A stretch of DNA of 64,000 nucleotides from Candidatus Enterousia sp. (GCA_045613785.1 JAZLBQ010000026.1:12697-76696); one strand, 5' to 3'. Shown: positions 2,015 through 39,747, counted from the stretch's first letter. The notes: generated from the sequence alone by a model not told the origin. A program made the numbers and translations.

Positions 2015-2077
2015 AATTTTCCCCTTTTTTTCTTAAGGAAATCTTACAAACAAACCACGAAAAAAGCAACGAATTTG

Positions 2078-3265
2078 TTATCTTTTCTTTTCTGGCAAAA
2101 TCAACAAACTAAACGCCCCGACAAAGACGGTTACAACCCACACAGCCGACGTTGTTCCGAACAAAGAAATCACAACTGCCGCCAACATCGGTGCAATAAC
2201 ATTTGGCAAATTAGAACTTGTTCTAAACACGCCATAATACTTGGCCTGCTGTGCCCGTCCCATACCGTCAAAGAACAACAAATCATGAACAGATTCCATC
2301 AATGCCCCCGACACCTGCCATGCAACAAATATAACCAATAACGGCACACCTGTAACGATTGTTGCAGCCGCTGACAATAATGCAAAAGAACCAAATCCCA
2401 GCATCAGCCAAATTGTTTTACCAAAACGTCTAACTGCCCGCCCCATAAATTCACTAAGCAACAAATAAGGCACAATCCCCAGCGTTAAAACCCAACCCAA
2501 CACGTCCTTATCAAATCCATTTTCAACAACCAAAATCGGCACATACAAGACACGCATTGCACGCAAAGAATAATACCCAAAGTTTACCAAATAAGCCCGC
2601 ACCATACCTGGCACCCTGAAAAATTGAACAGTATTTTTCCACAACGCCCGGAAAGTCTTGCGTGGATTGACCGGCTTTATTTGTTTATCTTCCTGAACGA
2701 TTTTGAAATATTTGAACACCGACCAAGCAATCAGATAAATCACAGCAGATGCAAAAAACGCCGCCCGATTACCAAACAAATCTGCAATCCAAACAGCAAG
2801 CATTGGTGCGAACAAGGCCCCCACATTCAACCATAAATGATACCGTGAATTTAACCTAGCCATACCGATATTTTTTGAAAAATCAGACATAAACAACGGA
2901 ATCAACATACTTGACAATGTGATTGCAATCCCGGTTGTATAGTCCAGAATAACAAAAGTCCGTGGCAATATTGAAAAGCTCATCATCGCATAGCAAATTG
3001 CCATCATCAGCAAAGCAAAAAAGAACACCCGAACCTTGGAAAAAGCCCGCAAGATTTCATTTGCGAACAGCCCTACAACAAAACAGAACACAGAATAAAT
3101 AGCAACATAAATTCCGACAATTGCAGAAGACTTAAAAATCTCTAATAAAACCAGTGAATAAACAGCATTGTAAATTCCATCTGCAAACCCTGTAAACAAA
3201 CCCAGATTTGCAAACGAAAAGCCACTAACACTTTTTCGAACTGAAATATATTTATCCCTTGCCAT
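2078..3265 (-). CDS. MFS-family transporter
   Basis: 395 aa, about 12 predicted hydrophobic helices; overall resemblance to major facilitator proteins. Confidence 0.6.
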   Translation of the reverse strand: MARDKYISVRKSVSGFSFANLGLFTGFADGIYNAVYSLVLLEIFKSSAIVGIYVAIYSVFCFVVGLFANEILRAFSKVRVFFFALLMMAICYAMMSFSILPRTFVILDYTTGIAITLSSMLIPLFMSDFSKNIGMARLNSRYHLWLNVGALFAPMLAVWIADLFGNRAAFFASAVIYLIAWSVFKYFKIVQEDKQIKPVNPRKTFRALWKNTVQFFRVPGMVRAYLVNFGYYSLRAMRVLYVPILVVENGFDKDVLGWVLTLGIVPYLLLSEFMGRAVRRFGKTIWLMLGFGSFALLSAAATIVTGVPLLVIFVAWQVSGALMESVHDLLFFDGMGRAQQAKYYGVFRTSSNLPNVIAPMLAAVVISLFGTTSAVWVVTVFVGAFSLLILPEKKR

Positions 3266-3319
3266 ATTGATAAATTATAGCATAAAAAAAACAAATCAGC
3301 AAACGCAAGGAATCAAAAT

Positions 3320-3430
3320 TTTAATGAAATTAAATAGAATAATTTAGATACGGACAGTGCCGTCCCCGCTGTGTCCAGAAGCGACATAAGGGAACGGCAC
3401 CGTTCGCAGATGAATTATTATATTTAATTT
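3320..3430. repeat. MITE-like palindromic element, copy 1 (TIR AAATTAAATAGAAT / ATTATATTTAATTT with internal hairpin)
   Basis: Near-identical to copies at 16011-16120 and 22661-22760. Terminal inverted repeats plus an internal imperfect palindrome gcggacagtgccgtcccc...gggaacggcaccgttcgc. Overlaps the yebC stop codon. Confidence 0.8.
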
Positions 3431-4140
3431 GCGGCAGTAAACACCTTCTGCACATCATCATTCGCATCCAATGCATCAACTAACTTTTCCAATTTAGCAT
3501 ACGCTTCGTCGTCCAAGTCCATTGGCATATTTGGAAGCCATGTCAATTCTGCCTGTTCTGGTTCACCCAATTTATCAGCCAAGATTTTTTGTGCATTGAT
3601 AAAATCTTCTGGTTTTGTTGTGATGATAAAACCTTCTTCGGATGTTTCCAGGTTATCAGCATTAGCCTCCATAATGATTTCCATCATTTCATCTTCAGTT
3701 TTGCCGATTGATGCAGGATACATAATCTGACCGGCACGTGTAAACATAAAGACAACACTGCCTTCTTCACCCATATTTCCGCCATTTTTACCAAAGATGT
3801 TACGAATTTCTGGCACTGTGCGACGTGGGTTATCGGTCAAGGCCTCTACAATAACAGGCACTGCCCCTGGTCCATAACCTTCATATCTTACTGCTTCATA
3901 GTTTTCGGTATTTGACCCCGATGCTTTATCGATTGCACGTTTGATATTATCGTTCGGCATAGAATTCTTGCGTGCTGTCAAGATTGCCAAACGCAGGCGT
4001 GGATTATTATCAGGGTTTTTATCACCCAGCTTTGCCGCCATTGTAATTTCACGTGCTAATTTTGTAAACAAACCACTTCGTGCTGCGTCTGCTGCACCTT
4101 TTTTGTGTTGGATATTATGCCATTTACTATGTCCACTCAT
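3424..4140 (-). CDS. yebC: YebC/PmpR-family transcriptional regulator
   Basis: 238 aa; MSGHSKWHNIQHKKGAADAARSGLFTKLAREI is the canonical YebC N-terminus. Confidence 0.9.
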   Translation of the reverse strand: MSGHSKWHNIQHKKGAADAARSGLFTKLAREITMAAKLGDKNPDNNPRLRLAILTARKNSMPNDNIKRAIDKASGSNTENYEAVRYEGYGPGAVPVIVEALTDNPRRTVPEIRNIFGKNGGNMGEEGSVVFMFTRAGQIMYPASIGKTEDEMMEIIMEANADNLETSEEGFIITTKPEDFINAQKILADKLGEPEQAELTWLPNMPMDLDDEAYAKLEKLVDALDANDDVQKVFTAAN

Positions 4141-8834: not shown

Positions 8835-11345
8835 ATCTTTTGCTCTTTTCAAATCATCAAACGCCTGATATTTCTTATCGCTTGTTTCATAGTATTCATA
8901 TCCTGCATTTCCTGCCGAATACATATTAAACAACTCTGTTGTTTTATTGACTGCGGCATCTATCATTTGTTGTGTTTGCTCTTTATCATAATTGATAACA
9001 CGTGCATCACCATTTTTTAACTGCAAGAACTTCATCACAGGTGTTTTAGACAATTCTGTTGTTTCGATTGGAAATCCATCTGTTTGCAGGATATAAGCCT
9101 CTAATGGTAATTGTGGCATATTGCCCTGCTCTAATTGACTTTTTGATGGTGCAGAACCTGTTTTAATATCCATCACCACCCCGTCCCAGAATCTATCTGC
9201 CTTGGCACGAACTGTTCGTCCAGCAATTTTTACACTACCCTCTTTTTCAATTCCTGGGTTTTGAATATCTTTCAGTGCCTCGGACACCACGGGTGCTATT
9301 TCATAAAACCGCTTTCGCCAGAAATGAAACAACACACTATTTGTTCCCAGCAATTCACGAGCCTTATTCTCCATTTGAGCCGCCAACACATCAGGATTCC
9401 AATCGGTTGCATCTTCGATAACCTTGTGAACCAGATTTCCAAAATCACGTCCATCGACCCCGACCCAATAATCGTCCAATACCCTCAGTCTTAAAATATG
9501 CTTTACATAAAAAGCGTATGGATTATGAATTAAATATTCCAGTTCTGTCACATATACATCAGACCAATCTGCTGGTGGTGTTGGCACAGAATAATCCAAA
9601 CTCTGCATTTTCACATTATCTAATTTTGCCACGGCCTGTGTAATATCTTTATTTCTGTCAAACTTTCCTTTGGCCACAATCACACGTGAAATAAATCTAG
9701 ACTCGGCGGTTTGCACCCCACCTGAAACAGTGCTTCGCAGCCACCAAACCTGTGAACCACAGGACAGATTCATAAAATCCAACGACTGCAACGAAACCTT
9801 GCGGTCAGGCGACGGCAATCCAATTTTTTCAGCCAAATGCCAGGGCAGCCAGGCATTTTCATAACCACGTGCCGGAAACATTCCATCATTTAGTCCTGTT
9901 AAAATCACAACATCTGCGGTCTGCATTCTGGATTCGATTGTTCCCAGCACAACGACCTGTGCTTTATCGTCCATAACCCCACGCACAGACACATTTGATA
10001 TGGCATCTAAAACAAAAGCACGTGCATCAACCAGACTCAACTGCACACCAATTGCAGCCAACGCATCTGAAACCTTTTTAATTTCAATCCATATCTGCAC
10101 AGATGTTGCATCGTCCACCACAAAGTTCGGTGTAAATTCCGCCTGATGTTTTTGAACAATCAAAGAAATCGTATCAAATAAATTGTGTTTGCATTCTGCA
10201 CAAATTTCATCAAATTCATTTGAAGACGTTTCAATCCATCCATCAATCATATTCAGCAACGCCCGCCCTGTTGCGGTCATTGTTCCTGGGACACCACCTG
10301 AAAAATCAGCCTTTATTCCCCGACTTGCCAATTCTGTTGCAATACGTTGATTTCCGGCTGCGTCAGGTGTTATAACTAAAACTGTTTTATTTTCATCTAA
10401 TGCCCTTTGTGCAATTTCTGCAACGGCTGCAGCCTCGACTGATTCACGTGAACATTCGACCAAATGACAGTGCGACAAATCTACATCACTATTCATCACT
10501 GAAACATCATTTCCAAAAGCCTTATTCATAAAATCAATTGCAGATGGTCCAACATCAATCGGCACAACATCATCAGCCTCTAAGCCCAGTCTTGATAAAA
10601 ATTTATATTCAGAATTATATGGATTTGTATTTAATTGAAAATCCTGAACACGCCCCGATATTTTTCCAGACAAAATTATTCGTCCATGTGGTTGCTTGGC
10701 AATTTCAACCATCAAATCAGCTGTCGCTGGAACACTAGCAGTTGACGCACAAACAACAACCAATTTATATCGATTCAAATAATCTTTCCAACGACGAATA
10801 TCCCTATTTTTAGCCATTGCAGATGTCAATCTTCCGCCTGCATAATCATTCATAAAAGTTGACATTATGCTTAAAAATCTGGCCTTATTTTGAAAATGTC
10901 GTGCATACTTTTCATCAACCAATCCCGCCCAGTCAACAGTTGCAACATCAATTCCTTCATTTTCCAGATAATCGCACATACGCACTAAATCTCGTGCCAA
11001 TGTCAAAGCAGTTGTCCAGTTTCCAACACTTGCATCTGCGACCAGCAATCTAGCCATTAAAACAATACGTTCAGTATTTGAAATAATATCCCTAGAACGA
11101 ATATCTTCCCAGTCTTCATCATTTGGGTTATCAACCCCTTCCCCCAGCGCAACCAACTGTGGCAAAATCACAGCACCACCAGACTTTTGCACAATCATTT
11201 TTTCGACTGTTCGCACAGCACGACGACTGGGCAAGAAAATCAGCATATCTGCCAACGCCACCCCAGAAGCACTGATAAGTTTCCACAACGCCTCTGAAAT
11301 CTTGGCAGGATTAGTTGCGTAAAAAACGCTATGATTATTTGACAC
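8832..11345 (-). CDS. addB: AddB-like double-strand break repair protein (PD-(D/E)XK helicase-nuclease family)
   Basis: 837 aa. The N-terminus ADMLIFLPSRRAVRTVEKM resembles alphaproteobacterial AddB. No addA was seen adjacent. Confidence 0.5.
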   Translation of the reverse strand: MSNNHSVFYATNPAKISEALWKLISASGVALADMLIFLPSRRAVRTVEKMIVQKSGGAVILPQLVALGEGVDNPNDEDWEDIRSRDIISNTERIVLMARLLVADASVGNWTTALTLARDLVRMCDYLENEGIDVATVDWAGLVDEKYARHFQNKARFLSIMSTFMNDYAGGRLTSAMAKNRDIRRWKDYLNRYKLVVVCASTASVPATADLMVEIAKQPHGRIILSGKISGRVQDFQLNTNPYNSEYKFLSRLGLEADDVVPIDVGPSAIDFMNKAFGNDVSVMNSDVDLSHCHLVECSRESVEAAAVAEIAQRALDENKTVLVITPDAAGNQRIATELASRGIKADFSGGVPGTMTATGRALLNMIDGWIETSSNEFDEICAECKHNLFDTISLIVQKHQAEFTPNFVVDDATSVQIWIEIKKVSDALAAIGVQLSLVDARAFVLDAISNVSVRGVMDDKAQVVVLGTIESRMQTADVVILTGLNDGMFPARGYENAWLPWHLAEKIGLPSPDRKVSLQSLDFMNLSCGSQVWWLRSTVSGGVQTAESRFISRVIVAKGKFDRNKDITQAVAKLDNVKMQSLDYSVPTPPADWSDVYVTELEYLIHNPYAFYVKHILRLRVLDDYWVGVDGRDFGNLVHKVIEDATDWNPDVLAAQMENKARELLGTNSVLFHFWRKRFYEIAPVVSEALKDIQNPGIEKEGSVKIAGRTVRAKADRFWDGVVMDIKTGSAPSKSQLEQGNMPQLPLEAYILQTDGFPIETTELSKTPVMKFLQLKNGDARVINYDKEQTQQMIDAAVNKTTELFNMYSAGNAGYEYYETSDKKYQAFDDLKRAKD

Positions 11346-11895
11346 CCAACGTTTCCTTTATTTTTTCCAAACCTGTTTTCTTTTCTGCAGACGTCATTAA
11401 AACTTCTGGCAACATTGCTCCATGTTCAGTATGCAGAATTTCGATCTGTTTAGTTTCACGAACTTTTTTATCTTTTTTTGTGTAAACAATCTGATAAGGG
11501 ATTGCATTTGCATCGCAAAAATCCATCAAATCCAAATCAGCATCTTTTGCACCAATTCGTGAATCAATCAATATAAACAGACGCTTTAATTGACTTCTGC
11601 TCAACAAATATTCTTCTAAACGTTTCAGCCATCTCATTGCATCGACTTTGGACACTTTGGCATAACCATAGCCCGGCAAATCAACAATCATCACCCTATC
11701 GTCCAGATTAAACAGATTTAAACTTTGTGTTCGCCCAGGGGTATTAGACGTTCGTGCAACAGGCGTTCCGACGACTGCATTTATCAACGACGACTTTCCA
11801 ACATTACTACGTCCAATAAAAGCATATTCTGCGAATTGCGTCTTGGGCAACGACTTTACTGTTTCGAAACTGCCAACAAATTTAATCATCTGCAC
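11335..11895 (-). CDS. engB: ribosome biogenesis GTP-binding protein YihA/EngB
   Basis: 186 aa; FIGRSNVGKSSLINA, DLPGYGYAKV. Confidence 0.9.
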   Translation of the reverse strand: MQMIKFVGSFETVKSLPKTQFAEYAFIGRSNVGKSSLINAVVGTPVARTSNTPGRTQSLNLFNLDDRVMIVDLPGYGYAKVSKVDAMRWLKRLEEYLLSRSQLKRLFILIDSRIGAKDADLDLMDFCDANAIPYQIVYTKKDKKVRETKQIEILHTEHGAMLPEVLMTSAEKKTGLEKIKETLGVK

Positions 11896-12682
11896 CCTCT
11901 TTTTCTAGCAAGCGTTTATAAGCTTCTTTTTTTGAAATTCCTGTCATTTTTGCTAAATCTGCCGCTGCGGATTTCATCGAAGTCAATGCGATATCATTGA
12001 CAATTTTTGATATTTCATCATCAGTCATTTTAACTTCTGGTCGTGGTGCGACGACTATAACGATTTCGCCACGTGGCGGAGTAATATTCATCAATTCCGC
12101 CGGATAGCCTATAATAGTTTCTTCATAGATTTTAGTAATTTCACGAACAATTGCAATTTTTCGTTCTGGCATAACCCGTGCCATATGTTCGATTGTTGCC
12201 ATAATTCTATTTGGGCTTTCATAGTAAATAATTGTATGCGGTATTTTATTATCATCACGCAGTTTTTTTTCATCAAAGAATCCACAAAATGTAAATCTGT
12301 CTGTTGGGAATCCGCTCAGAACCAATGCACTAATTGCTGCCACAGGCCCTGGCACAACAAAGACAGGCAGTCCTGCCTCTCGTGCTGCCCTGACGATACG
12401 AAACCCAGGATCAGAAATACCAGGCATACCCGCATCACTAACTGTTGCGACTGCCATACCGGACTGAATTTTTTCAATAATTCCTGGCACTGCATCACGT
12501 TCATTATGTTCGTGCAAAGAAATCCGCTTTGTTTTTATATCAAAATGACTGGCCAATTTGCCAAAGACCCGTGTATCTTCTGCGGTAATCAAATCAACAT
12601 TTTGCAAAACTTCTATTGCCCGTGGCGACATATCCGCCAAATTTCCTATTGGAGTTCCAACAATGTAAAGCCCTGATTGCAT
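11882..12682 (-). CDS. rsmI: 16S rRNA (cytidine1402-2'-O)-methyltransferase RsmI
   Basis: 266 aa; LYIVGTPIGNLADMSPRA...ITAEDTR. Divergent from an lpoA-like gene, as in E. coli rsmI-lpoA. Confidence 0.9.
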   Translation of the reverse strand: MQSGLYIVGTPIGNLADMSPRAIEVLQNVDLITAEDTRVFGKLASHFDIKTKRISLHEHNERDAVPGIIEKIQSGMAVATVSDAGMPGISDPGFRIVRAAREAGLPVFVVPGPVAAISALVLSGFPTDRFTFCGFFDEKKLRDDNKIPHTIIYYESPNRIMATIEHMARVMPERKIAIVREITKIYEETIIGYPAELMNITPPRGEIVIVVAPRPEVKMTDDEISKIVNDIALTSMKSAAADLAKMTGISKKEAYKRLLEKEGADD

Positions 12683-12703
12683 TAAAAATCCTTTTATAGT
12701 AAA

Positions 12704-14350
12704 ATGATACAGAATAAAATGGATTTTTCAATGTATATAAACAGAATTTTTGCATATTTAACAACTGCCGTTATCCTGGCTGGCTGTGCTGGCACTGACA
12801 ACCAAGACACCACATCAATCGATTGGTTTGATGCCCACGACGCAATGCAGACAGGCACACCAACATTGATGTATGGCCAACTATCTGACGGCTATGGAAC
12901 ACTTGAATCAACCTCTGACGATTCTGAACACACAATCGCAGTCCTATTGCCACTATCTGGTCAAAATGCATCTGTTGGAAAAACGATACGCACTTCGGTT
13001 GAAGCAGCAGTTTTAAAGAACGCACCAAAAAATCTGTCAGTCTTATTTTATGACACATCTGAAAACCTGCCTGAAACAATCAACACGGCTCTATCAGAGA
13101 ATCCAGAAATTATTGTAGGCCCTGTATTTTCCGACTCGGTCAAGACACTAGCCCAACAAAAGCCTGCAAACCTGCCGGTTATATCATTTACATCTGATGC
13201 ATCAGCCCTGGGCGATGGTATTTTAACAATGAACCTTATGCCAACAAATGGCGTTGAAACAATCGTCCACCAGATGAAGGCAGACAATACAAATCAGTTT
13301 GTAATTCTAGCACCAAATACAACATCTGGAAAATTATTGGCAGGCACTGCAAAAAACGCTGCCCAGATATATGAATTACCACTGTCTGGAATAATCTATT
13401 ATACCCCTGGCGACCCCGACTCTATTAAAACCGCCAGTCAAAGTGCCGCAATGCACAACGCCCGCACAGCGGCTCACACTCGTGCCCGCCAGGTATTATC
13501 TGATATTTTAATAAACGAACGCTTGACTGCATTGGAACGCAGCAGTCTAAACACTCAACTGGAAAAACTGTCTAAAACAGAAACCGTTGGTCGTGTTCCT
13601 TATGACGCTGTCCTATTCCTAGGCAATGGCGATGACACAAAATCATTAGCATCATACTTACGCTATTTTGATGTTCCTGCAAATAGCACAAAATTCTATG
13701 GCACAACAATGTGGGACGGCTCTGACATAACATCTGACCTGACAATGTCTGGGGCAAAATTCGCAACATTGCCTGACACAGCCCCTGAATTTATCAAGAT
13801 TTATGAACAGATTTCAGGCACACAACCTGACAAACTAGCATCATTTGGCTATGATGCCGCCAACCTTGCAATTGGAATGATTTATTCTGATAAATCAACC
13901 GCTGCATACCTACTAGACCCCAGCGGTTATATCGGCAGCAACGGCTTATTCCGTATACAACCAACAGGTGCATCTGAACACGCCTTGCGTATTGTTCAGT
14001 TAAACGGCACAGGAACACCGATTGAAATCAAATCTGCCCCAACAGACTTTCAATCACCATTGTATAACATCGAACAGCGGCACATAACACCTGCCCCTGC
14101 AATGGCTTTGGAAACCCCTGGCATTGACCCAGACAATTACGTAAAACTGCCTGAACGCCTACGCAGCAAATACCGCAGCAAAACCATTGGGACAAACATT
14201 TCCATTGCCCCAACAGTCCGCAAAAGTGAAATTGTTGCGATTCTCCCCGAAGACGACAGCGACACAATTCAATCAGAAAACTATACACCCGTAAAACTAG
14301 AATCTGTCTCACGCAGTTATATCGAAGAATACGAAATCTACGAAGACTAA
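12704..14350 (+). CDS. lpoA: LpoA-like penicillin-binding protein activator lipoprotein
   Basis: Lipobox LAGC, a periplasmic ligand-binding-type fold, and conserved divergent synteny with rsmI. Confidence 0.6.
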   Translation: MIQNKMDFSMYINRIFAYLTTAVILAGCAGTDNQDTTSIDWFDAHDAMQTGTPTLMYGQLSDGYGTLESTSDDSEHTIAVLLPLSGQNASVGKTIRTSVEAAVLKNAPKNLSVLFYDTSENLPETINTALSENPEIIVGPVFSDSVKTLAQQKPANLPVISFTSDASALGDGILTMNLMPTNGVETIVHQMKADNTNQFVILAPNTTSGKLLAGTAKNAAQIYELPLSGIIYYTPGDPDSIKTASQSAAMHNARTAAHTRARQVLSDILINERLTALERSSLNTQLEKLSKTETVGRVPYDAVLFLGNGDDTKSLASYLRYFDVPANSTKFYGTTMWDGSDITSDLTMSGAKFATLPDTAPEFIKIYEQISGTQPDKLASFGYDAANLAIGMIYSDKSTAAYLLDPSGYIGSNGLFRIQPTGASEHALRIVQLNGTGTPIEIKSAPTDFQSPLYNIEQRHITPAPAMALETPGIDPDNYVKLPERLRSKYRSKTIGTNISIAPTVRKSEIVAILPEDDSDTIQSENYTPVKLESVSRSYIEEYEIYED

Positions 14351-14371
14351 CGGAAAAACCTATACAATTTA

Positions 14372-14399
14372 CCCCCAAAAAAAACGGGGGTGTTTTTTT
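14372..14399. terminator. rho-independent terminator (bidirectional hairpin)
   Basis: acccccaaaaaaaacgggggtgttttttt. Confidence 0.7.
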
Positions 14400-14523
14400 G
14401 ACAAACAAAATAAAAAAATACCCACATAGCGTGGGTCGGGAGTATGCTTGCACTAATCGAACAGAAAACAAACAAGAATTTTCCAATTTAATGCAACTGG
14501 TAAAAGAGTTTAAAGAGAAATGG

Positions 14524-15531
14524 TTAATATCTTGATTTTTTTAATTGATTAAATAATTCGTATTCTATTCCATAGGAACTGATTTCTGTTGCGGATTTAT
14601 GGTATGCTTTGTCGTTTATATGAGCAGGTACATACGTAGCACGATCAATATACTGAATTTGTGGTCCCAATGCACCTTGGCGTGGTTTTTGATAATCTAA
14701 TGCATGGTGTATTTCGTGTGCTAATACGCTAACCATGCTATAAAAGAAATCGTTTTTATCTGGATGATGTTTTTTTACGTTCGTGATATTTACACGTACA
14801 ACTGATGATTTATATGCGTTTGGGTGTTTTTCTAGATCTTTGAGAAATTCATCCAAAAGTTCTTTCTTTTCTGTTTCGGATATATTTGATGGAAAAGTTA
14901 TGCTATAGGCGTGCGTGTGAAAACCATCGGTAACATCGTATCTGCCATTTGGTTTTACATCAGAATTTTCCCAATCAGTTATGACTTTTGAATCAATATA
15001 GCAGTCATATTCTTTGCAAAAATCTTTAGTTAAGGCATTAAATAAAGCATTATAAGCATCGATTATGCTACTTTCATCAGCCTCACGAGCAGCCACAACC
15101 AAATCTTTATGATTGTTTAATCTGCGTATCCAATCGGCAGAAAATTGTTTAGCCAATATGTATATATTTACTGTTCCTGCTTTGAATTTATCGCGTATTT
15201 TTTCTGGATTTTCATTGTTTTTGAACATTTGACTTAATTCTCTGTCGAATGTATCAAATTCACCTTTTATATAATTCAAATCCTTACTAACAGCGAACAA
15301 TGTAATAGGCAAATTTTTTGGCCTGTATTGATCCAATGAAATCGCTTTTGTAATTTTTGTGACCAATTCATCCGGTGAAAATTTGGTTAATAACCTGTTG
15401 GCAAAACCATCAATATCATTCATTTGTTTAAGTATACTATCTTTTTCATTTTGGTTTTTGGCGGCTTTATATTGTTTTAACAAATCAATGGTTTGTAATG
15501 CAGAGTTTATTTCAAGATTTTCATTATCCAT
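14524..15531 (-). CDS. hypothetical protein with HExxH zinc-metalloprotease motif
   Basis: 335 aa with no signal peptide; the VLAHEIHHALDY motif sits near the C-terminus. Confidence 0.5.
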   Translation of the reverse strand: MDNENLEINSALQTIDLLKQYKAAKNQNEKDSILKQMNDIDGFANRLLTKFSPDELVTKITKAISLDQYRPKNLPITLFAVSKDLNYIKGEFDTFDRELSQMFKNNENPEKIRDKFKAGTVNIYILAKQFSADWIRRLNNHKDLVVAAREADESSIIDAYNALFNALTKDFCKEYDCYIDSKVITDWENSDVKPNGRYDVTDGFHTHAYSITFPSNISETEKKELLDEFLKDLEKHPNAYKSSVVRVNITNVKKHHPDKNDFFYSMVSVLAHEIHHALDYQKPRQGALGPQIQYIDRATYVPAHINDKAYHKSATEISSYGIEYELFNQLKKSRY

Positions 15532-15740: not shown

Positions 15741-15827
15741 TGGTGGGAGTGGCTGGATTCGAACCAGCTCAGGCTTAAGCCAACAGATTTACAGTCTGCC
15801 CCGGCTCTCCAACTCCGGCGCACGCCC
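15741..15827 (-). tRNA. tRNA-Tyr (GTA), type II with long variable arm
   Basis: Reverse complement GGGCGTGCGCCGGAGTTGGAGAGCCGGGGCAGACTGTAAATCTG...CCACCA; anticodon loop CTGTAAA. Confidence 0.85.
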
Positions 15828-15907: not shown

Positions 15908-16010
15908 CAACAAAATCAAAGCCATCTGATTATATACGAAATGAAAACAAAATCAAGAACAAAGTAAAAGAAGAATAAAAATAAATTCCTGCCCCACCCA
16001 AATCCTGAGT

Positions 16011-16120
16011 TTAATGAAATTAAATAGAATGATTTAGATGCGGACAGTGCCGTCCCCGCAGTGTCCACAAGCGACATAAGGGAACGGCACCGTTCGCAGA
16101 TGAATTATTATATTTAATTT
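16011..16120. repeat. MITE-like palindromic element, copy 3
   Basis: About 95% identical to copy 1. Its right TIR supplies the TAA stop of the 80-aa Cys-rich gene. Confidence 0.8.
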
Positions 16121-16361
16121 ACCGCAATGGCGGGAAACAATCACCCCCCACTTCCGGACAACAGTTAAATCCTAAATCAGCCATGTCGGTATATACTTCA
16201 CCTGGACAACAACCATATTTATCTGGTTGTGCACCATAATCACAGACCGGCATATCACTAGGACGCATTGCATCACGATTAGCCCCTGTTAAAACACCAA
16301 AAGCAAAGCCTACAAAAAAAGCAATTACAACTGAAACTATTGAACAGATGTTTTTCTTCAT
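16119..16361 (-). CDS. small secreted cysteine-rich protein (six-Cys C-terminal module)
   Basis: 80 aa with signal peptide MKKNICSIVSVVIAFFVGFAFG; C-terminal module CDYGAQPDKYGCCPGEVYTDMADLGFNCCPEVGGDCFPP. Confidence 0.6.
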   Translation of the reverse strand: MKKNICSIVSVVIAFFVGFAFGVLTGANRDAMRPSDMPVCDYGAQPDKYGCCPGEVYTDMADLGFNCCPEVGGDCFPPLR

Positions 16362-16382
16362 CTTTACGCCCTTTGTCTTGTG

Positions 16383-16970
16383 TTACTGTTGTTTAAATGG
16401 TGGGAAACATTCATTGCCACCGTCTTTTGGGCAACATGCAAAAACGGCATTTCCCAAATCTCTGAATATTTCATCGCCACAGCAACCAAATTTATTTGGC
16501 TTTGAACCATCTGCACAAAGCCCTGCATCTAAATTGGCTAATTCCTTTTCAACTTCGGCCTGAATCTTGGCATTTTCTGCTGCGATTTTTTCTTCTTCAG
16601 TCATCGTATCTTCTGGAGCTACTTCTTCTGCACTTGCAACTTCTTCGGCCTTAACCTCTTCTTCTGTGGTTGAATTTTCTGGATTTTCTTCAACCTCTTG
16701 TGCTTTTTCCTCTGTTTCAATCACAACCATAGACGTCGCACTAGAACGTCTTGATGCAGCAACCTTGGCACATTTGCGACGATAATCCGCCTTTAACTTG
16801 GTTAGTTCTGCAATTATTTCATCATCAGGATCCACAATCTGCACCAATTCAGTAATTTTGTTTTGAATATCAACACAAGTCAAACGCTGAGAAACATTAA
16901 CTGTTGACACATCATCAGCCCATGCATTTATTGCAAAAATACAGCCGAACAAGACAATTAGTTTTTTCAT
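16383..16970 (-). CDS. secreted acidic protein with the same six-Cys C-terminal module
   Basis: 195 aa with signal peptide MKKLIVLFGCIFAINAWA and a Glu-rich linker; C-terminal module CADGSKPNKFGCCGDEIFRDLGNAVFACCPKDGGNECFPP, paralogous to 16119..16361. Confidence 0.6.
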   Translation of the reverse strand: MKKLIVLFGCIFAINAWADDVSTVNVSQRLTCVDIQNKITELVQIVDPDDEIIAELTKLKADYRRKCAKVAASRRSSATSMVVIETEEKAQEVEENPENSTTEEEVKAEEVASAEEVAPEDTMTEEEKIAAENAKIQAEVEKELANLDAGLCADGSKPNKFGCCGDEIFRDLGNAVFACCPKDGGNECFPPFKQQ

Positions 16971-16978
16971 TTTTTTTC

Positions 16979-17515
16979 CTATTGTTCATTGATTATTTTT
17001 TCGACTTCCAAGATAAAATCAATCGCAGGTGCAGTCAGTTTTTTCGCAGTTTCGAATATTTCTTCGGCTGCCATCTGCATATTCAAACGTTTATACGTTT
17101 CAACAACTTCGATTGTATCTTCTTGACTAAATTCATCATCTGTTATTGCCCGTGCAATTTCCAGTTCTTGCTTTGCCAATTCAACATACTTTTCAGAGTT
17201 TTCCGCACATCCCCGTTCGGACAAATTAGCATAGATTTTTGCACGCATAATTCTGTCATCAGAAATAGTATTTTCTGCTGGCAATTTTTCCAACAATAAC
17301 TCTTCTACAATGACACAAGTTGGTTTTGGTTCTATCTGAATTTCTGGCACAGGGTTTGTTGTTTCTTCGACCTCTGCTGCAATAACTTTTTTTGAACTAC
17401 TGAACCCCAGTCCAACCATTATACCACATACAAACAATGCAAGCAGTCCCATAATTCCCCAGAATTTTTGAGCCTTGGTATGAACAATTTTATATTGTTG
17501 TTTTTGTTTTTTCAT
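16979..17515 (-). CDS. hypothetical single-pass membrane protein
   Basis: 178 aa; N-terminal TM GIMGLLALFVCGIMVGLGF, then a predicted helical periplasmic domain. Confidence 0.5.
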   Translation of the reverse strand: MKKQKQQYKIVHTKAQKFWGIMGLLALFVCGIMVGLGFSSSKKVIAAEVEETTNPVPEIQIEPKPTCVIVEELLLEKLPAENTISDDRIMRAKIYANLSERGCAENSEKYVELAKQELEIARAITDDEFSQEDTIEVVETYKRLNMQMAAEEIFETAKKLTAPAIDFILEVEKIINEQ

Positions 17516-17543
17516 TTAACTCTCTCCCTTAGTTTTATTATTG

Positions 17544-18254
17544 TTATTCCACGATTCCGTTGTTGATTGTAATTCTACGATCTGCCCGCTGTGCCAGATT
17601 CATATCATGTGTCACGAACAGCATTGCCATTTTATTCTTGCGTGCTAAATCCAGCAATAAATCGAACACCGCCCCTGCATTATGCGGGTCAAGACTGCCA
17701 GTTGGTTCATCTGCCAACAAAATATCAGGATTGTTTGCCAAGGCTCGTGCCACTGCCGTTCGTTGTTGTTCACCACCACTCATTTCACCAGGATGATGAG
17801 ATGCACGATGTGCAACATTTGCAGCCCGCAACAATTTCATTGCCCTGGCCCTGGCGACATTTTCTTCGACGCCATTTGCCAGCATTGGCAACATGACATT
17901 TTCCAATGCGGTAAAGTCAGCCAACAAATTATGTCGCTGATAAACAAAGCCTATTTTTTTACGACGAACCTGAGTCCTTCTTTCTTCGTCCATTCTTTGA
18001 ACAGGCATACCGTTTATCAAGATACTGCCACCACTTGGCTTGTCCAACAGTCCTACACATTGCAACAAAGTAGATTTTCCTGACCCAGACGAACCAACCA
18101 TTGCAACAATTTCACCACGATGCAAATCAAATCCCCCACCACGCAATATATGCAAAGGCTGTCCGCCTTCGACAAACGTGCGTTTAATATCCCGCACTGA
18201 CATAACCACGTCACCAGACTGTACCTTTGACAAAGACTCTAAAATATTCGCCAT
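17544..18254 (-). CDS. lolD: lipoprotein-releasing ABC transporter ATP-binding protein LolD
   Basis: 236 aa; Walker A GSSGSGKST, signature LSGGEQQR, and high similarity to E. coli LolD along its full length. Confidence 0.85.
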   Translation of the reverse strand: MANILESLSKVQSGDVVMSVRDIKRTFVEGGQPLHILRGGGFDLHRGEIVAMVGSSGSGKSTLLQCVGLLDKPSGGSILINGMPVQRMDEERRTQVRRKKIGFVYQRHNLLADFTALENVMLPMLANGVEENVARARAMKLLRAANVAHRASHHPGEMSGGEQQRTAVARALANNPDILLADEPTGSLDPHNAGAVFDLLLDLARKNKMAMLFVTHDMNLAQRADRRITINNGIVE

Positions 18255-18929
18255 TTATTCCCGCCCATTATTCTTATTTAGTTCTATCTGTGCCACAGCC
18301 TGCTTTAATATATCACGAAATTGTGGCGCAACCACATGCCCAACTCCATACCAAATGCCCTTCAGCGCTTCTTGGGTATCAACATCCATCTGGTCTTTGG
18401 TTCTATTCAGATAATATTCAATATCTTCGGGCGAAAAACCAAAGGCAACCCCATGAATAAAATCCAACTCCAAATTATTTAACAACTTATCTGCATATTG
18501 CGGAAAGTTCTTTTTTGCATCCTGCACTTTTGCTGGCTTTATCGAAACATTTGCCAATTCTGGATTCAGACGCTTTATTTCATCTACATAACGCTTCATC
18601 TGAACACGCCAATTGTCCTTATTTTGCAAAATATAATTTTCTAAATCTGCAATTTCCTGTTCTGAATATCGCGTATCACCAACCACTATTTTACGCACCG
18701 CTTTTTGATAATCTTGCAGTCTGTACATATACCCATATCGCATCATCAAACCAAATGGACTTAATCCATCTGGCAACTTATATTGATAATAAATCTTGAA
18801 TGGTAATTTTACCCCATGCTCCACAAACATCTTTTCTGCATCCAACGCACTAGACTGATACTCGCCCCACTCTGCATTAAATTGTTCCAGCATAATTTTG
18901 TTAAAAAGCAATTCTGTTTTCTTACTCAT
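18255..18929 (-). CDS. hypothetical cytoplasmic protein inserted between lolC and lolD
   Basis: 224 aa with no recognisable motif. Its start overlaps the lolC stop by 8 nt, and its stop TAA directly abuts the lolD ATG (TAAATG). Confidence 0.5.
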   Translation of the reverse strand: MSKKTELLFNKIMLEQFNAEWGEYQSSALDAEKMFVEHGVKLPFKIYYQYKLPDGLSPFGLMMRYGYMYRLQDYQKAVRKIVVGDTRYSEQEIADLENYILQNKDNWRVQMKRYVDEIKRLNPELANVSIKPAKVQDAKKNFPQYADKLLNNLELDFIHGVAFGFSPEDIEYYLNRTKDQMDVDTQEALKGIWYGVGHVVAPQFRDILKQAVAQIELNKNNGRE

Positions 18930-20175
18930 TTCTCAGCACCTCAACCGGGTCTGTATTTGCCGCTTTCCACGCTGGATACAGCGTCGCCAAAAATGCCAAC
19001 AATATTGCAATCAGCGCAATACCCAAAACATCTGTCCACACCAACTTTGATGGCAACTCTGACAGATAATATAATTCCGCCGGGAACAAATCCCGTCCTG
19101 TCAACCATTGGAAAAACTGTCGTATTGGTTCAATATAAATTGCGACCACCACCCCCAGTATTGTTCCAAATAACGCCCCAATAATTCCAATTGATGTTCC
19201 TGACAAAACAAAGATTTTCATCATAGACCGACGACTGACCCCAAAAGTTCGCAACACTGCAATATCTTTGTTTTTATCTTTGACCAGCATTACCAACGAC
19301 GAAACTATATTAAAAGCCGCCACAATAACAATCAGCAACAAGATTAAAAACATAACATTTGATTCGACCTGCAACGCCCCAACAAACCCACGATTTAAAT
19401 CACGCCAATCACGGACAACAAATCCTTCGGGCAATAACCTTGCCAAACTTTCCACAACGACTGTTGTATCTTCTGGGTCTTCCAAGAAAACATCAATATG
19501 TGTTACACTATTTCCGATATTTAGATACTTTTGTGCAGTTTCCAGCGGCATAAAGATATACCCAGAATCATATTCATACATACCCATAAAGAAAGAACTC
19601 ATCACCGGATAAGACATAATTCGTGGCATTGACCCAAAAGGTGTTGGTGTTGCTGCATTTGCCGATACCAATGAAATTTTATCCCCCATCGTGACACGCA
19701 ACGCACGTGTAAGCGACGCCCCTGCAACCAATTCACCATCAGATATAGCAGACAAATCCTTACCATAAATACGTGTTCCATTTTGTGTTTTTTTTGCCAA
19801 ATCAGACATACGAATACCACGAATCATTGCCCCTGTGTTATTACCATTGGCTGTGGCCATAACCTGCCCTTCTGCGATTGGCACGATACCGGTTGCCCGT
19901 TGTTCAACAACCTTGTTTTGTTTAATTTTGTCGATTAGGAAATCAAAGTCAGCAATTGCACCATCTTGATGATAGACAACGACATGTCCGTTCATTCCCA
20001 CGATACGCCCTAACAGAGTCTCGTGAAAACCACCCATTACAGACATCACAACAATCAAGGTCGCAACACCTAACATGATACCAATCAGCGACACCCAGGA
20101 AATCACAGAACCGAATCCCCGTTTTTTTGCCCCCAAATATCTAAAAGCGATTTTTCTTTCCAGTTTTGAAAACAT
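18922..20175 (-). CDS. lolC: lipoprotein-releasing system permease LolC/E family
   Basis: 417 aa; N-terminal TM, a large periplasmic domain, and 3 C-terminal TMs (FtsX/MacB-like topology); LolC-like N-terminus FRYLGAKKRGF. Confidence 0.8.
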   Translation of the reverse strand: MFSKLERKIAFRYLGAKKRGFGSVISWVSLIGIMLGVATLIVVMSVMGGFHETLLGRIVGMNGHVVVYHQDGAIADFDFLIDKIKQNKVVEQRATGIVPIAEGQVMATANGNNTGAMIRGIRMSDLAKKTQNGTRIYGKDLSAISDGELVAGASLTRALRVTMGDKISLVSANAATPTPFGSMPRIMSYPVMSSFFMGMYEYDSGYIFMPLETAQKYLNIGNSVTHIDVFLEDPEDTTVVVESLARLLPEGFVVRDWRDLNRGFVGALQVESNVMFLILLLIVIVAAFNIVSSLVMLVKDKNKDIAVLRTFGVSRRSMMKIFVLSGTSIGIIGALFGTILGVVVAIYIEPIRQFFQWLTGRDLFPAELYYLSELPSKLVWTDVLGIALIAILLAFLATLYPAWKAANTDPVEVLRNE

Positions 20176-20187
20176 CAGTTTTTATCC

Positions 20188-21516
20188 TTATTCACTCAAA
20201 AAATCACGCAACGCATCACCAATCAGTTCATTTGCCTGTCCAATTTGAGCAGGTCCATCAACAATTGAAATCACACGTGGCGACATAAAGACAACCAGTT
20301 CTGCAAAAGGCGACACCAATGTTTCAGGTGTTGTCACAAACGAATGCGTTGGAATACCGATAATCACATAGTTATCCCCAACACTTGTTGGCAAATTGAA
20401 TGAGCTCAATTCTCCCTGACTTGTTCGCAACACGATTTTTGCATCAATCTTATCACGACCACCAAAGTCCCCATATTTTCCGGTTGCCCCAACAATTAAA
20501 TCTGTTTCCAATCGTTCTTCACGACCACATTGTCCGATATCAAATCTTGATTGCCAACCATTTGGTATAGCAAACGTTCCTTGAGAAATTAAAACAACAT
20601 TTGCCTGTTGTGCTAAAAATTCCTGCAAAGTTTTTGTATTGATTTCAGGACCTACGACCAACGCACGTCCAACGACACCTGGCACAGACATTTTAATATT
20701 CTTTTCACCGAACGCTGGCAATAAATTCATCCAAACAATTGGGTTATCTGTTCGTGGATAGACACGATAAACATCGATATCCCACGCCAACATATATTTC
20801 TTTCCAGAAACATCTGCGATAATCCTTGCGACCTCACGTTCAGTCTGATAATTTCCTTCAAAGACCAACGTTTTATCTTGCCAATCAACAATTAGATTAC
20901 GCATATCTGCACCATGCATTGCGTCCAGCAACGCCATAATAATCGTTTCATCTTGTGGCATTTTAATCAGCCACTTTCCACGATGCATCAAATGCAATTC
21001 GCCATTTTGTGCATCATAGGAATAATAAGCACGTCCCATTTTTGCCATCAATTCAACAGCATCAGACAACGCCCCCGATGAAATAGTCCCTGAAATTTTT
21101 TCAAATAACTGTTCATCTTCTACAACTGCAATATCTGTTCCGTCCAGCAATTTATCCAACGCCCGTTTAACAGTCAAATCCTTGAATTCATAGTCTGAAA
21201 CTTTCAACTCTGGCAGTTCATCACCCACCCCCAGACGTATCATTTCAATTTTTTCAGCAGGCACAACCGAAACCACACTTTGATTATTCCAATCAACTTC
21301 ACACCGCTTTGGCAGCTCTACCGAAAAGCGTCGTGCAGTATCTGTTGTCAAGGCTGCTTTTTTTGGAAAGATTGGCACAGAATTTTCATCGATTACCAAC
21401 TCGTCAATAACAGTGATATTATCAATAATCTGCACAGGCTTGTCTTCTTGAACACAGGCCGCCATTGCGAAACAACAAATCACCCAAGATAATTTTTTTA
21501 ATGCTCTCATACCCAC
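20188..21516 (-). CDS. outer-membrane lipoprotein with secretin-like features (tentative)
   Basis: 442 aa; signal peptide plus Cys (FAMAAC), a secretin_N-like block (VKRALDKLLDGTDIAVV...LSDAVELMAKMGRAYYSYD) and a C-terminal IIGIPTHSF...ELVVFMSPRVI resembling the secretin VPxLGxIPxLGxLF...ELLVFITPRII motif. Confidence 0.35.
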   Translation of the reverse strand: MGMRALKKLSWVICCFAMAACVQEDKPVQIIDNITVIDELVIDENSVPIFPKKAALTTDTARRFSVELPKRCEVDWNNQSVVSVVPAEKIEMIRLGVGDELPELKVSDYEFKDLTVKRALDKLLDGTDIAVVEDEQLFEKISGTISSGALSDAVELMAKMGRAYYSYDAQNGELHLMHRGKWLIKMPQDETIIMALLDAMHGADMRNLIVDWQDKTLVFEGNYQTEREVARIIADVSGKKYMLAWDIDVYRVYPRTDNPIVWMNLLPAFGEKNIKMSVPGVVGRALVVGPEINTKTLQEFLAQQANVVLISQGTFAIPNGWQSRFDIGQCGREERLETDLIVGATGKYGDFGGRDKIDAKIVLRTSQGELSSFNLPTSVGDNYVIIGIPTHSFVTTPETLVSPFAELVVFMSPRVISIVDGPAQIGQANELIGDALRDFLSE

Positions 21517-21536
21517 TTCCTTTCGATTAGACCCTA

Positions 21537-21917
21537 TCAGATATTCATAACCCTTTCAAATTCTTCCAACGTCATTTCATGTATAGGCTTTTGCGTTGGT
21601 GTTACTAAATCACGCACACGTTCAAATTGTGCTGCAAAGCGATTTATCAGCCCGACAATTTCTGGGGTCAGATTTTTATTCTGTGCAATCAAACGTCGTC
21701 CATACTCTACAACATACTCTAACACATCAGCCATATAAAATCGCCCGACATAGTTTTCCATTGCAATCCCACCCTTTTGGACACAGATTGCAGACATCAT
21801 CATTGCGGTCTGATTATAGTAATTTGCCAACTTGATAAACTGCTGAACAGTCACAGCCATACTATTGTCCTTTCTCTCTTTTTTTACATTATAAAAACTA
21901 TTGCCCCCATAACGCAA
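21537..21917 (-). CDS. hypothetical protein
   Basis: 126-aa ORF; the true start may be the internal MAVTVQQ (~21860). Confidence 0.4.
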   Translation of the reverse strand: MRYGGNSFYNVKKERKDNSMAVTVQQFIKLANYYNQTAMMMSAICVQKGGIAMENYVGRFYMADVLEYVVEYGRRLIAQNKNLTPEIVGLINRFAAQFERVRDLVTPTQKPIHEMTLEEFERVMNI

Positions 21918-21936
21918 TTAAATTATAATATAAACC

Positions 21937-22323
21937 ATGAGAATAAAAATTCTAAGCATCTTTTTATGCATTGCTTTAACTTCATGTGCCTCTGTAAACC
22001 AAGGCAGTATTGACGACGCAACTGTTTTAAATTGGGAAAATGAAGCGGTTACTACCGAACAATTCGTCCGTGACCACAAATCATGCCTGGGAATAGACCG
22101 CCCGTCATACCAGCCACGCTCACGCATTGCGAAATTACTGGCCCCTAACCAGTCTGCAATGATGCCTGATTGGGACGGTCTGTGGGTAACCTTTCAATCA
22201 AACGAATATCGTGACGTTGGGCAACGCAGCCTGATGAGTGTCCCCCGCAACAGTTCATCACGCACCGTTGGTGCATACCGCCGTTGTATGTTCCGCCGTG
22301 GATATTTATTACGTGCAATGTAA
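21937..22323 (+). CDS. hypothetical lipoprotein
   Basis: 128 aa; lipobox LTSC after MRIKILSIFLCIA. Followed by the hairpin terminator at 22322-22353. Confidence 0.5.
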   Translation: MRIKILSIFLCIALTSCASVNQGSIDDATVLNWENEAVTTEQFVRDHKSCLGIDRPSYQPRSRIAKLLAPNQSAMMPDWDGLWVTFQSNEYRDVGQRSLMSVPRNSSSRTVGAYRRCMFRRGYLLRAM

Positions 22324-22513: not shown

Positions 22514-22587
22514 TGGTGCCCTAAGCAAGAATCGGACTTGCGACTCGTCCTTACCAAGGACGTGTTTTACCACTAGACTATTAGGGC
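22514..22587 (-). tRNA. tRNA-Thr (GGT)
   Basis: Reverse complement GCCCTAATAGTCTAGTGGTAAAACACGTCCTTGGTAAGGACGAGTCGCAAGTCCGATTCTTGCTTAGGGCACCA. Confidence 0.85.
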
Positions 22588-38697: not shown

Positions 38698-38774
<77 letters not shown>

Positions 38775-39064
38775 GAATTCCGCCCCATTTTCACCCTTTT
38801 GCTACCTATTTGCTACCAAGAACAACCATTAAAGATAAACAAAATCATACATTATTAAGAATTGACATCTGATTTGAACATACTAGAATTCAAGCATAAT
38901 CAAAAGAATTCTTATTTTTCTAACAATACCTAACCCAACTTCAAATACACACAGGGGACGGGGGGGGGAGCAAGGTATAAGCCATAAAAAACACAAATCG
39001 GTCTTGAACTAAATAAAATAGAACAAGAATTAAACCAAACATCGTATCTTATTACTATACAATA

Positions 39065-39739: not shown

Positions 39740-39747
39740 ATTTCCCC

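Follow-up and report, generated by a model that had tools for sequence, protein, structure and literature searches.

Four described systems come closest to the locus considered here: BfpB (PDB 9U5S), a secretin of the lipoprotein type that serves the type IVb bundle-forming pilus; the LolCDE and LolDF transporters, which release lipoproteins; the Aat system of enteroaggregative E. coli; and, from type IV secretion systems (T4SS), the lipoproteins DotD and Xanthomonas VirB7, which carry an N0 domain. To our knowledge, every solved secretin is a large, gated, double-walled channel that serves pili, phage export or secretion of type II or III, the hallmark of the superfamily (PF00263; GspD/PilQ/BfpB/pIV) being an outer-membrane beta-barrel of 12 to 17 subunits with two walls and a gate in its centre, and alphaproteobacteria lack LolB. 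The channel of Aat is TolC-like and is accompanied by a periplasmic adaptor and an acyltransferase of its own. BfpB consists of a lipid anchor, an LG linker, N0, N3 and a secretin domain, and the N0 fold is common to BfpG and VirB7 (PMC12531336). In Aat, a Lol-like ABC transporter together with an outer-membrane channel exports a lipoprotein (PMC7943197).

In this study, we examined a gene string in a 64-kb window, the whole stretch of DNA analysed (64,000 nucleotides), from Candidatus Enterousia sp. Candidatus Enterousia are gut alphaproteobacteria of the order Rs-D84. A preliminary description of this DNA had noted eight tightly packed, co-directional genes at 16119-21917 and had suggested that they form a single elaborated Lol or export pathway. 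All eight open reading frames (ORFs) were found on the minus strand, and we place a probability of roughly 0.55 on a different reading, namely that the string is a vertically inherited mosaic of separate modules plus variable cargo, not one machine. The first part would be an older two-gene module made of the cytoplasmic helical protein p126 and the outer-membrane lipoprotein p442, the second the housekeeping LolC-LolD lipoprotein-release transporter, and the third a variable cargo comprising p224, in a usually empty slot, and a downstream set of bitopic and secreted Cys-module proteins. The features of the region are as follows.

21537..21917, minus strand: p126, ORF
20188..21516, minus strand: p442, ORF
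18922..20175, minus strand: lolC, ORF, single LolC/E-type permease
18255..18929, minus strand: p224, ORF
17544..18254, minus strand: lolD, ORF, ABC ATPase
16979..17515, minus strand: p178, ORF
16383..16970, minus strand: p195, ORF
16119..16361, minus strand: p80, ORF
~16010-16120, no strand assigned: palindromic MITE/REP-like repeat of ~112 nt, an inverted repeat that abuts the p80 stop codon
15834-15908, minus strand: tRNA-Gly(tcc), downstream of the cluster
15741-15827, minus strand: tRNA-Tyr(gta), downstream of the cluster
22514-22587, minus strand: tRNA-Thr(ggt), upstream of the cluster

Layout and conservation of the gene string

From p126 to p80, the intergenic gaps are 20, 12, -8, 0, 28, 8 and 21 nt; these are the values given earlier except for the first, which had been put at 19 nt. 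The 224-aa gene is indeed wedged between lolC and lolD, with the lolC stop overlapping the p224 start (ATGAGTAA) and the p224 stop TAA directly adjoining the lolD ATG. A scan of the minus strand inside the cluster found no terminator-like sites, and the eight genes are probably co-transcribed. The bracketing of the cluster by tRNA-Tyr/Gly and a MITE on one side and tRNA-Thr on the other is also confirmed, a divergent 128-aa lipoprotein gene (21937-22323, plus strand) separating the cluster from tRNA-Thr. The palindromic element, of which a second, ~95% identical copy lies near 3320-3430, folds into a hairpin of -43.6 kcal/mol (z = -6.5) that may serve as a terminator. The tRNA flanks are conserved, and the position of the tRNA-Gly/Tyr pair is conserved synteny, not an island border: the pair also lies downstream of the cluster in four relatives (L017, L044, L072 and L154). 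The GC content of the cluster is that of its surroundings.

Relatives of p442 occur in 277 species genomes, 80 of which, from Ca. Enterousia or uncultured alphaproteobacteria, were fetched. The backbone order p126-p442-lolC-lolD-p178-p195-p80 is kept in 80/80 of these species-representative genomes, contigs that end inside the cluster being counted as far as they run, and the arrangement is far beyond chance. The gene order is, as had been supposed, lineage-specific; it is conserved among relatives, and public records label its genes only 'hypothetical protein'. Conservation differs among the genes: median identity across species is 90% for lolC, 83% for lolD, 81% for p442 and 76% for p126 (80 Enterousia species), and falls to 66% for p178, 56% for p80, 40% for p195 and 31% for p224.

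p442 as a shortened secretin-type lipoprotein

The 442-aa ORF had been described as a lipoprotein with secretin-like motifs, and profile and structure comparison both bear out secretin homology from N0 through the secretin domain. Translation most probably begins at the ATG at 21510, downstream of GAAAGGAAG; this yields a protein of 440 aa, the length of its homologues, with Cys21 in its lipobox (..AMAAC). Behind the lipid anchor come a linker, the N0 domain, ring-building domains of N1/N3-like type and a secretin domain of reduced size; Cys72 and Cys330 are invariant. Alignment by hhalign of the p442 family with genuine lipoprotein secretins (A2 vs A5) gave a probability of 99.96% (E 5.5e-39) over query residues 81-419, reaching the C-terminal 'EL(V/L)xxxxPRxI' strand, and the closest solved relative of the secretins linked in this way is BfpB (E 5.5e-36). 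Relative to genuine secretins, three deletions shorten the p442 secretin domain by ~75-80 residues in the hhalign comparison. The PF00263 Secretin model matches neither p442, even at E<=1, nor the family representatives P0123, P0134 and P0157; PF00263 secretins do form the weak tail of the p442 representative search, and the STN (N0) sequence match is faint (E 0.056 for p442, 2.9e-4 for P0123).

An AF2 model of p442, a monomer built from a shallow alignment of 24 sequences (pLDDT 72), contains beta-alpha-beta-beta-alpha-beta units at ~82-177, 180-254 and 262-318, and its best Foldseek match is BfpB (PDB 9U5S; E 1.6e-9). The arrangement of the domains differs from that in assembled secretins, which keeps the Foldseek TM-scores low (0.14-0.25). 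Ring and gate architecture aside, p442 is, as judged from its sequence profile, a secretin homologue. By alignment to BfpB-like secretins, the deleted residues lie where solved secretins have their inner barrel and gate hairpins.

A shortened secretin domain that fails PF00263, the absence of pilus or type II secretion genes nearby, and a host lineage that is under genome reduction (PMC12306168) might together indicate that p442 is a decaying, functionless relic of a lost pilus or type II system. We find this scarcely credible, and the conservation of p442 has already largely refuted it. Identity is 77-91% over 80 species (median 81%), similar to that of LolD; Cys, Gly, Pro and Trp positions do not vary among 33 representatives of the family, whose identity goes down to 22%; genomes of <1 Mb have kept the gene; and the shortened secretin domain is common to all family members, which marks it as an old and stable form. 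The family is unnamed and rare. Among the neighbours of p442, which are housekeeping genes or genes of unknown function, we found none for filamentous-phage assembly, type IV pili or secretion of type II or III, and a survey of Rs-D84 genomes reported type IV pili from a different lineage alone (PMC12306168).

Modules and cargo around p442

For p126, the likely start is an ATG at 21860 that has a Shine-Dalgarno site, GAAAGGA, eight nt ahead of it, giving a small, all-helical protein of 107 aa that lacks a signal peptide and has no match in Pfam, NCBIfam, PADLOC or PHROG. In every lineage a 'gene B' stands ahead of the p442-like gene, and p126 corresponds to its conserved core domain; tblastn searches from distant loci find p126 at E 1e-7 to 1e-9, as supported by alignment A8. 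Twenty-two distant loci carry a p126-like gene B with p442 and no lolCD, and in 20 of these 22 a bitopic membrane gene, D, follows p442. This modularity argues against the eight genes forming a single Lol or export pathway, as do the canonical nature of lolC and the downstream Cys-module genes, which evolve fast, come in varying numbers and are missing from the sister lineage L112.

The genes lolC and lolD themselves had been correctly identified. lolC is canonical, scoring above the equivalog cut-off for the housekeeping permease (TIGR02212, 423.8 bits vs 362.45), and carries FtsX (PF02687) and MacB_PCD (PF12704) domains, the latter MacB-type periplasmic. lolD (ABC_tran, E 3e-33) has TIGR02211 LolD as its best NCBIfam match, at 254 bits and so below the cut-off of 307.75, and adjoins lolC in all relatives. 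Given genomes of <1 Mb (PMC12306168) and a LolC identity of 82-100% across species, a housekeeping role for LolCD is likely.

Direct action of p442 with LolCD, in which it would be a receptor, insertase or conduit in the outer membrane (for instance for surface-exposed lipoproteins, or in place of LolB) and the operon one pathway, is an idea we regard as distinctly unlikely. In its favour, only 12 nt separate p442 from the lolC gene downstream of it in every Enterousia genome, p442 is conserved about as well as LolD, and Aat offers a precedent for a Lol-like ABC transporter with an outer-membrane channel (PMC7943197). A second, far more distant group (L103-L108 and L110), in which p442 is 40-43% and LolC 44-46% identical, also keeps p442, lolC and lolD next to each other, 12-45 nt apart; this adjacency has thus outlasted the usual chance adjacency at a LolC identity of ~45%, and for this reason we do not dismiss Lol coupling. 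Against it stand the 22 distant loci, in 20 of which a bitopic protein takes the place of lolCD after p442, and the equivalog-level score of lolC. Moreover, p126, the conserved partner, has no signal peptide and is a misfit for a periplasmic or outer-membrane Lol step, and unrelated genes are inserted at both the p442/lolC junction (L014, L151 and L158) and the lolC/lolD junction. A more specific version, in which p442 is a gate-less 'mini-secretin' conduit that, with LolCD, inserts lipoproteins into the outer membrane or moves them to its surface in LolB-less, ultra-reduced alphaproteobacteria, seems to us very unlikely.

The neighbours of the module in distant loci raise the alternative that p442, with p126 and gene B, is the outer-membrane ring component of a virB-type system, akin to DotD or Xanthomonas VirB7, and that its position beside lolCD is incidental. 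A TrbL/VirB6-like gene lies upstream of the module in 9 loci, in L101 the module sits between such a gene and VirB11 plus VirB10 (TrbI), and virB3-virB4 are encoded in the window, 26 kb from the cluster; the N0 fold shared by BfpG and VirB7 fits as well. However, the T4SS-adjacent loci come from only two or three related sublineages, and we found no T4SS genes within 10 kb of the L081 module, nor any adjoining the module in the tier-2 loci inspected (L106 and L110) or in the Enterousia loci inspected (the window and L017). p442 is also homologous to secretins over its whole length: it has no Pfam or NCBIfam match to VirB7, VirB9, DotC, DotD or DotH families, and its likeness to DotD is confined to the N0 fold. 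We consider this alternative unlikely.

p224, too, argues against the single pathway in which it had been included. In 70/78 species genomes and 98/116 loci (~85% of lineages) the lolC/lolD slot contains no gene; its occupants in other lineages include an in-frame deletion remnant (L023), a NUDIX gene (L144) and a zeta-toxin-like gene (L158). p224 itself is a cytoplasmic, all-alpha protein and, to judge from comparison of these sequences, is accessory cargo in a variable slot. Downstream of lolD, p178 is bitopic and N-in (TM ~19-38), with a periplasmic helical module bearing a Cys pair; its family varies in copy number (L017 has two extra paralogues), its orthologues have N-terminal parts of variable length, and it shows no homology to gene D of the distant loci beyond the TM segment. 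p195, a secreted protein, begins with a signal peptide, continues with a helical Cys-pair module and an acidic linker, and ends in a six-Cys module (C-x8-CC-x13-CC-x7-C); it matches no Pfam, NCBIfam, PADLOC or PHROG family. The same six-Cys module recurs in p80, a small membrane-anchored or secreted protein, and a regex scan found only these two in the window.

Proposed assembly and comparison with known systems

In the model that we favour, p442 would derive from BfpB-type lipoprotein secretins by the loss of ~75-80 secretin-domain residues and, once lipidated, would reach the outer membrane as other Lol substrates do. There it may oligomerise through its N0/N3 ring-building domains and reduced beta-sheet domain into an outer-membrane-anchored ring or portal that lacks a canonical gate and is possibly clamped by a Cys72-Cys330 disulfide. 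Such a ring would belong to a trans-envelope assembly, having no specific work with LolCD, whose other parts in relatives are probably the cytoplasmic proteins A and B and the bitopic protein D, often beside type IV secretion genes. A tblastn search of the window found no partner genes A or D and no virB6/10/11-like genes, which leaves the proposed assembly without an identified inner-membrane part in Enterousia.

The p442 family keeps a lipid anchor, the N0/N3 ring domains and about half of the secretin domain under strong conservation, in bacteria with genomes <1 Mb for which no pilus system has been reported. If p442 still forms a ring, it marks a minimal secretin scaffold. It could also represent a part of the cell envelope that has gone unnoticed in uncultured gut alphaproteobacteria. 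Its position before lolCD also yields a concrete hypothesis on outer-membrane lipoprotein handling in LolB-less bacteria. The lolC/lolD slot, where p224, NUDIX and zeta-toxin-like genes are inserted precisely between two essential genes, the start ATG lying within the last lolC codons, is an example of reduced genomes hosting variable cargo inside essential operons.

Compared with known systems, p442 has the same order of parts as BfpB and likewise lacks a conserved S domain. It differs from BfpB in that its secretin region is ~75-80 residues shorter and misses the Pfam Secretin model, that no pilin, ATPase, platform or BfpG/TcpQ-like gene lies nearby, and that the gene conserved beside it encodes a cytoplasmic helical protein; a short C-terminal helix is added in Enterousia p442 and is absent from distant family members. 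From the T4SS N0-domain lipoproteins it is set apart by its additional N3-like and secretin-derived domains, and whereas virB genes adjoin p442-like genes in some relatives, no T4SS genes adjoin p442 in the Enterousia loci inspected. Aat is the known precedent for combining a LolCDE-like transporter with an outer-membrane channel, yet here LolCD is canonical, the outer-membrane protein is secretin-derived, and acyltransferase and adaptor are missing. Finally, the locus resembles LolCDE and LolDF in that lolC passes TIGR02212 and has FtsX and a MacB periplasmic core, and lolD best matches TIGR02211, but it has a single permease gene, an accessory gene between lolC and lolD, and a secretin-like lipoprotein gene conserved directly upstream of lolC.

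Layout and conservation of the cluster

On the minus strand we found eight open reading frames that are co-directional and closely packed, as the preliminary description had claimed, with measured intergenic gaps of 20, 12, -8, 0, 28, 8 and 21 nt. Proteins of the cluster are named here by their length in residues (p126, p442 and so on), and the features of the window discussed below are as follows.

16119-21917, minus strand: the cluster, p126-p442-lolC-p224-lolD-p178-p195-p80
21937-22323, plus strand: 128-aa lipoprotein gene (..LTSCAS..), divergently transcribed, without a family hit
~16010-16120: palindromic element of ~112 nt, touching the p80 stop codon
~3320-3430: second copy of the element, ~95% identical
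38698-42000: patch with a GC content of 0.30-0.35, beside tRNA-Met (38698-38774), holding a Fic/DOC-family protein gene (40879-41976) and two unknown genes of ~225-230 aa
47335-50057, minus strand: virB3-like gene (98 aa, two TM segments) and virB4 (809 aa, CagE_TrbE_VirB), overlapping by 4 nt; after them an unknown 203-aa gene, then rmlC/rmlD

The overlap of the lolC stop with the p224 start reads ATGAGTAA, the lolD ATG directly abuts the p224 TAA, and no minus-strand terminator-like sites were found within the cluster. The start of p126 is most likely the ATG at 21860, which gives 107 aa and has GAAAGGA 8 nt upstream, and that of p442, the secretin-like lipoprotein, is most likely the ATG at 21510, which gives 440 aa, as in almost every homologue.

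ARAGORN placed tRNA-Tyr and tRNA-Gly downstream and tRNA-Thr upstream of the cluster, in agreement with the flanks first described. These flanks suggested a genomic island, an origin that we rejected: the cluster GC of 0.40 is in line with the remainder of the window, and the tRNA-Gly/Tyr pair also trails the cluster in other species, which makes the flanks a case of conserved, inherited synteny rather than the borders of an island. What had been called a MITE is indeed a palindromic element, with a predicted hairpin of -43.6 kcal/mol (z = -6.5), and both copies are intergenic, each just 3' of a gene on the minus strand. This MITE/REP-like element may serve as a terminator.

Elsewhere in the window, the 128-aa lipoprotein gene lies beside p126, an adjacency kept in Enterousia and in L112, a sister lineage. 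The low-GC patch may be a small acquired island. The virB3-virB4 pair is 26 kb from the cluster, and type IV secretion genes seem scattered in this genome.

Close relatives of p442 number more than 1,200, come from uncultured alphaproteobacteria and are all unnamed or titled 'hypothetical protein'; 277 species-representative genomes encode one. The best 80 of these 277 genomes, with p442 identities of 77-91%, bear titles such as Candidatus Enterousia or uncultured alphaproteobacteria and derive from animal and human guts. Gene order proved to be conserved, with p126-p442-lolC-lolD-p178-p195-(p80) in 80/80 loci. Enterousia belongs to the order Rs-D84 and has genomes of <1 Mb without a TCA cycle, respiration or flagella (PMC12306168).

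Median identity of relatives' proteins to the window proteins
lolC: 90%
lolD: 83%
p442: 81%
p126: 76%
p178: 66%
p80: 56%
p195: 40%
p224: 31%

LolCD, variable slots and downstream genes

The lolC product scores 423.8 bits against TIGR02212 (cut-off 362.45) and has FtsX and MacB periplasmic domains, while the top match of lolD is TIGR02211, at 254 bits under its cut-off of 307.75. There is a single permease gene, and nothing points to a specialised paralogue.

Only 13 homologue clusters of p224 occur among 5.8 billion proteins; its conserved motifs indicate that it is a real gene. The spacing between lolC and lolD is <50 nt in 70 of 78 species genomes, a p224-like gene (26-52% identity) being present in 7 of the 78, and when 116 loci are ordered by LolC similarity p224 appears in 15, scattered across many clades beside sisters without it. 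The slot is bounded in the window by 18922-18929 and 18252-18257. Among relatives, it holds an in-frame deletion remnant, the first ~30 and last ~40 codons joined (L023, 2871-3086), a NUDIX hydrolase gene (L144, 10455-11037; E 1.1e-10) or a zeta-toxin-family kinase gene (L158, 11487-12195; 37.7 bits, cut-off 22.3). All slot genes use as their start an ATG lying within the final lolC codons (AAT GAR TAA), so that their products all open with M-[S/N]-K. The junction of lolC and lolD is a variable slot, and p224 is one of its cargo genes. Occasional unrelated inserts also occupy the p442/lolC junction, in L014, L151 and L158; judged by eye, those of L014 (7526-8050) and L151 (9215-9742) encode a membrane protein of ~170 aa, and that of L158 (9299-10240) a protein of ~310 aa resembling NAD-dependent 2-hydroxyacid dehydrogenases. 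Given variable inserts at both junctions, tight packing is no sign of shared function here.

Downstream of lolD, p178 is bitopic and has a periplasmic helical module with a Cys pair. In p195, an acidic linker comes between a similar helical module and a six-Cys module, and p80 has the six-Cys module alone; the window contains only these two six-Cys modules. Orthologues of the three differ greatly in length. In L017 (13990-16081), lolD and the gene of the p178 orthologue are separated by genes for two additional bitopic Cys-module paralogues (247 and 178 aa), and the orthologue itself is 257 aa long with its Cys-pair helical module duplicated. Searches of p126, p224, p178, p195 and p80 against Pfam, NCBIfam, PADLOC and PHROGs gave nothing significant.

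The p126-p442 module in distant relatives

Distant loci, consisting of two relatives placed on contigs and 80 from a metagenome scan with an 11-sequence alignment, were sorted into three tiers. In tier 1 (p442 identity of at least 60%), every locus has p126-p442-lolC-lolD, and the Cys-module genes that follow lolD are missing from L112 and L161. Tier 2 (L103-L108 and L110) is AT-rich, with identities of 40-43% for p442 and 44-46% for LolC, and here an XRE-S24-type regulator comes first, followed by genes A and B, p442, lolC and lolD. The 22 loci of tier 3 (p442 identity 29-33%) have no lolCD nearby; they show the same order as far as p442, after which comes gene D. A p126-homologous domain is found at the end of gene B (tblastn E 1e-7 to 1e-9); the p126/gene-B profile had no match in a PDB sequence search. 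Gene D, present in 20 tier-3 loci, encodes a bitopic protein, 214-301 aa long, whose N-terminus is rich in proline. We rejected p178 as a diverged gene D, as hhalign covers the TM segment only (42%, 24 columns).

The regulator that precedes these genes in tiers 2 and 3 (L084 1939-2931; L101 4133-5104; L100 974-1951; L105 79-747) is highly conserved. It contains two HTH domains of the XRE type, and its C-terminal domain resembles, by eye, an S24/LexA-type peptidase. The Enterousia arrangement is without it.

Since p442 and its cytoplasmic partner, the p126-like product of gene B, occur without lolCD in tier 3, the two are older than their connection with lolCD. This connection has a single origin, in the ancestor shared by tiers 1 and 2, and has persisted from then on. 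The preliminary description had suggested an elaborated Lol or export pathway, a reading that finds no support given this lolCD-free pair, the variable p224 slot and a lolC above the TIGR02212 cut-off. Direct cooperation of p442 with LolCD, whose genes adjoin that of p442 in tiers 1 and 2 but not in tier 3, has a low probability. The evidence best supports a mosaic operon that combines a secretin-derived outer-membrane lipoprotein module, housekeeping LolCD and variable cargo.

A role for p442 in type IV secretion is suggested by its neighbours in tier 3, where a TrbL/VirB6-like gene lies upstream of the module in 9 loci and, in L101, VirB11 and a 1,437-aa VirB10/TrbI protein come directly after it. 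No tblastn match in the window was obtained for genes A and D, the XRE-S24 regulator or the VirB6-, VirB10- and VirB11-like proteins, and such a role likewise has a low probability. L101, a distant gut alphaproteobacterial contig, encodes at 970-3978 a VirB6/TrbL-like protein fused to an M23 peptidase domain, and its VirB10/TrbI protein (10793-15106) has many beta-flower repeats.

Secretin descent and predicted form of p442

Pfam finds no Secretin domain in p442, its sole match being a faint STN (E 0.056), and PDB sequence searches with p442 and with its family profile gave no match. When 1.8 billion cluster representatives were searched exhaustively, only 125 matches emerged. The full-length ones are lipoproteins of ~400 aa with 23-41% identity, and the weakest (E 1e-4 to 1e-11) are longer proteins with PF00263 Secretin, STN and sometimes TcpQ. 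The secretin likeness claimed for the 442-aa protein was borne out by profile comparison with 20 true secretins (99.96% probability, E 5.5e-39), in an alignment of 335 columns that covers query residues 81-419 and includes the terminal 'ELVVFMSPRVI' strand. The p442 family is undescribed, yet clearly a member of the secretin superfamily. Across 33 aligned representatives, Cys72, Pro102, Trp262, Gly283, Gly313 and Cys330 are invariant, and a disulfide between Cys72 and Cys330 is predicted. This conservation, together with the median identity of 81%, argues against the idea that p442 is a decaying pseudogene or relic, which we rejected as unlikely.

The secretin domain of p442 is shorter by ~75-80 residues, at three places. 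By alignment to BfpB-like sequences, the missing stretches coincide with what we take to be the inner-barrel and gate hairpins of solved secretins. We infer that p442 forms a ring anchored in the outer membrane and lacking a canonical gate, and such a ring would be one part of a trans-envelope assembly.

The AlphaFold2 model of p442, built from a shallow alignment, has a pLDDT of 72 overall and of ~80-90 over residues 65-420. In it, a lipobox is followed by a disordered linker, by alpha/beta units at ~82-177, 180-254 and 262-318, and by a C-terminal part with a six- or seven-stranded beta region (305-419). The top 20 Foldseek matches to this model are all secretins, BfpB first (E 1.6e-9), then PilQ, GspD, InvG and pIV. 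BfpB is also the closest solved structure to the 20 true secretins compared with p442 (E 5.5e-36), and these match the MshL, PilN and GspD models below the cut-off. BfpB consists of a lipid anchor, an LG linker, N0, N3 and the secretin domain, with no S domain (PMC12531336), and the order of parts in p442 is the same.
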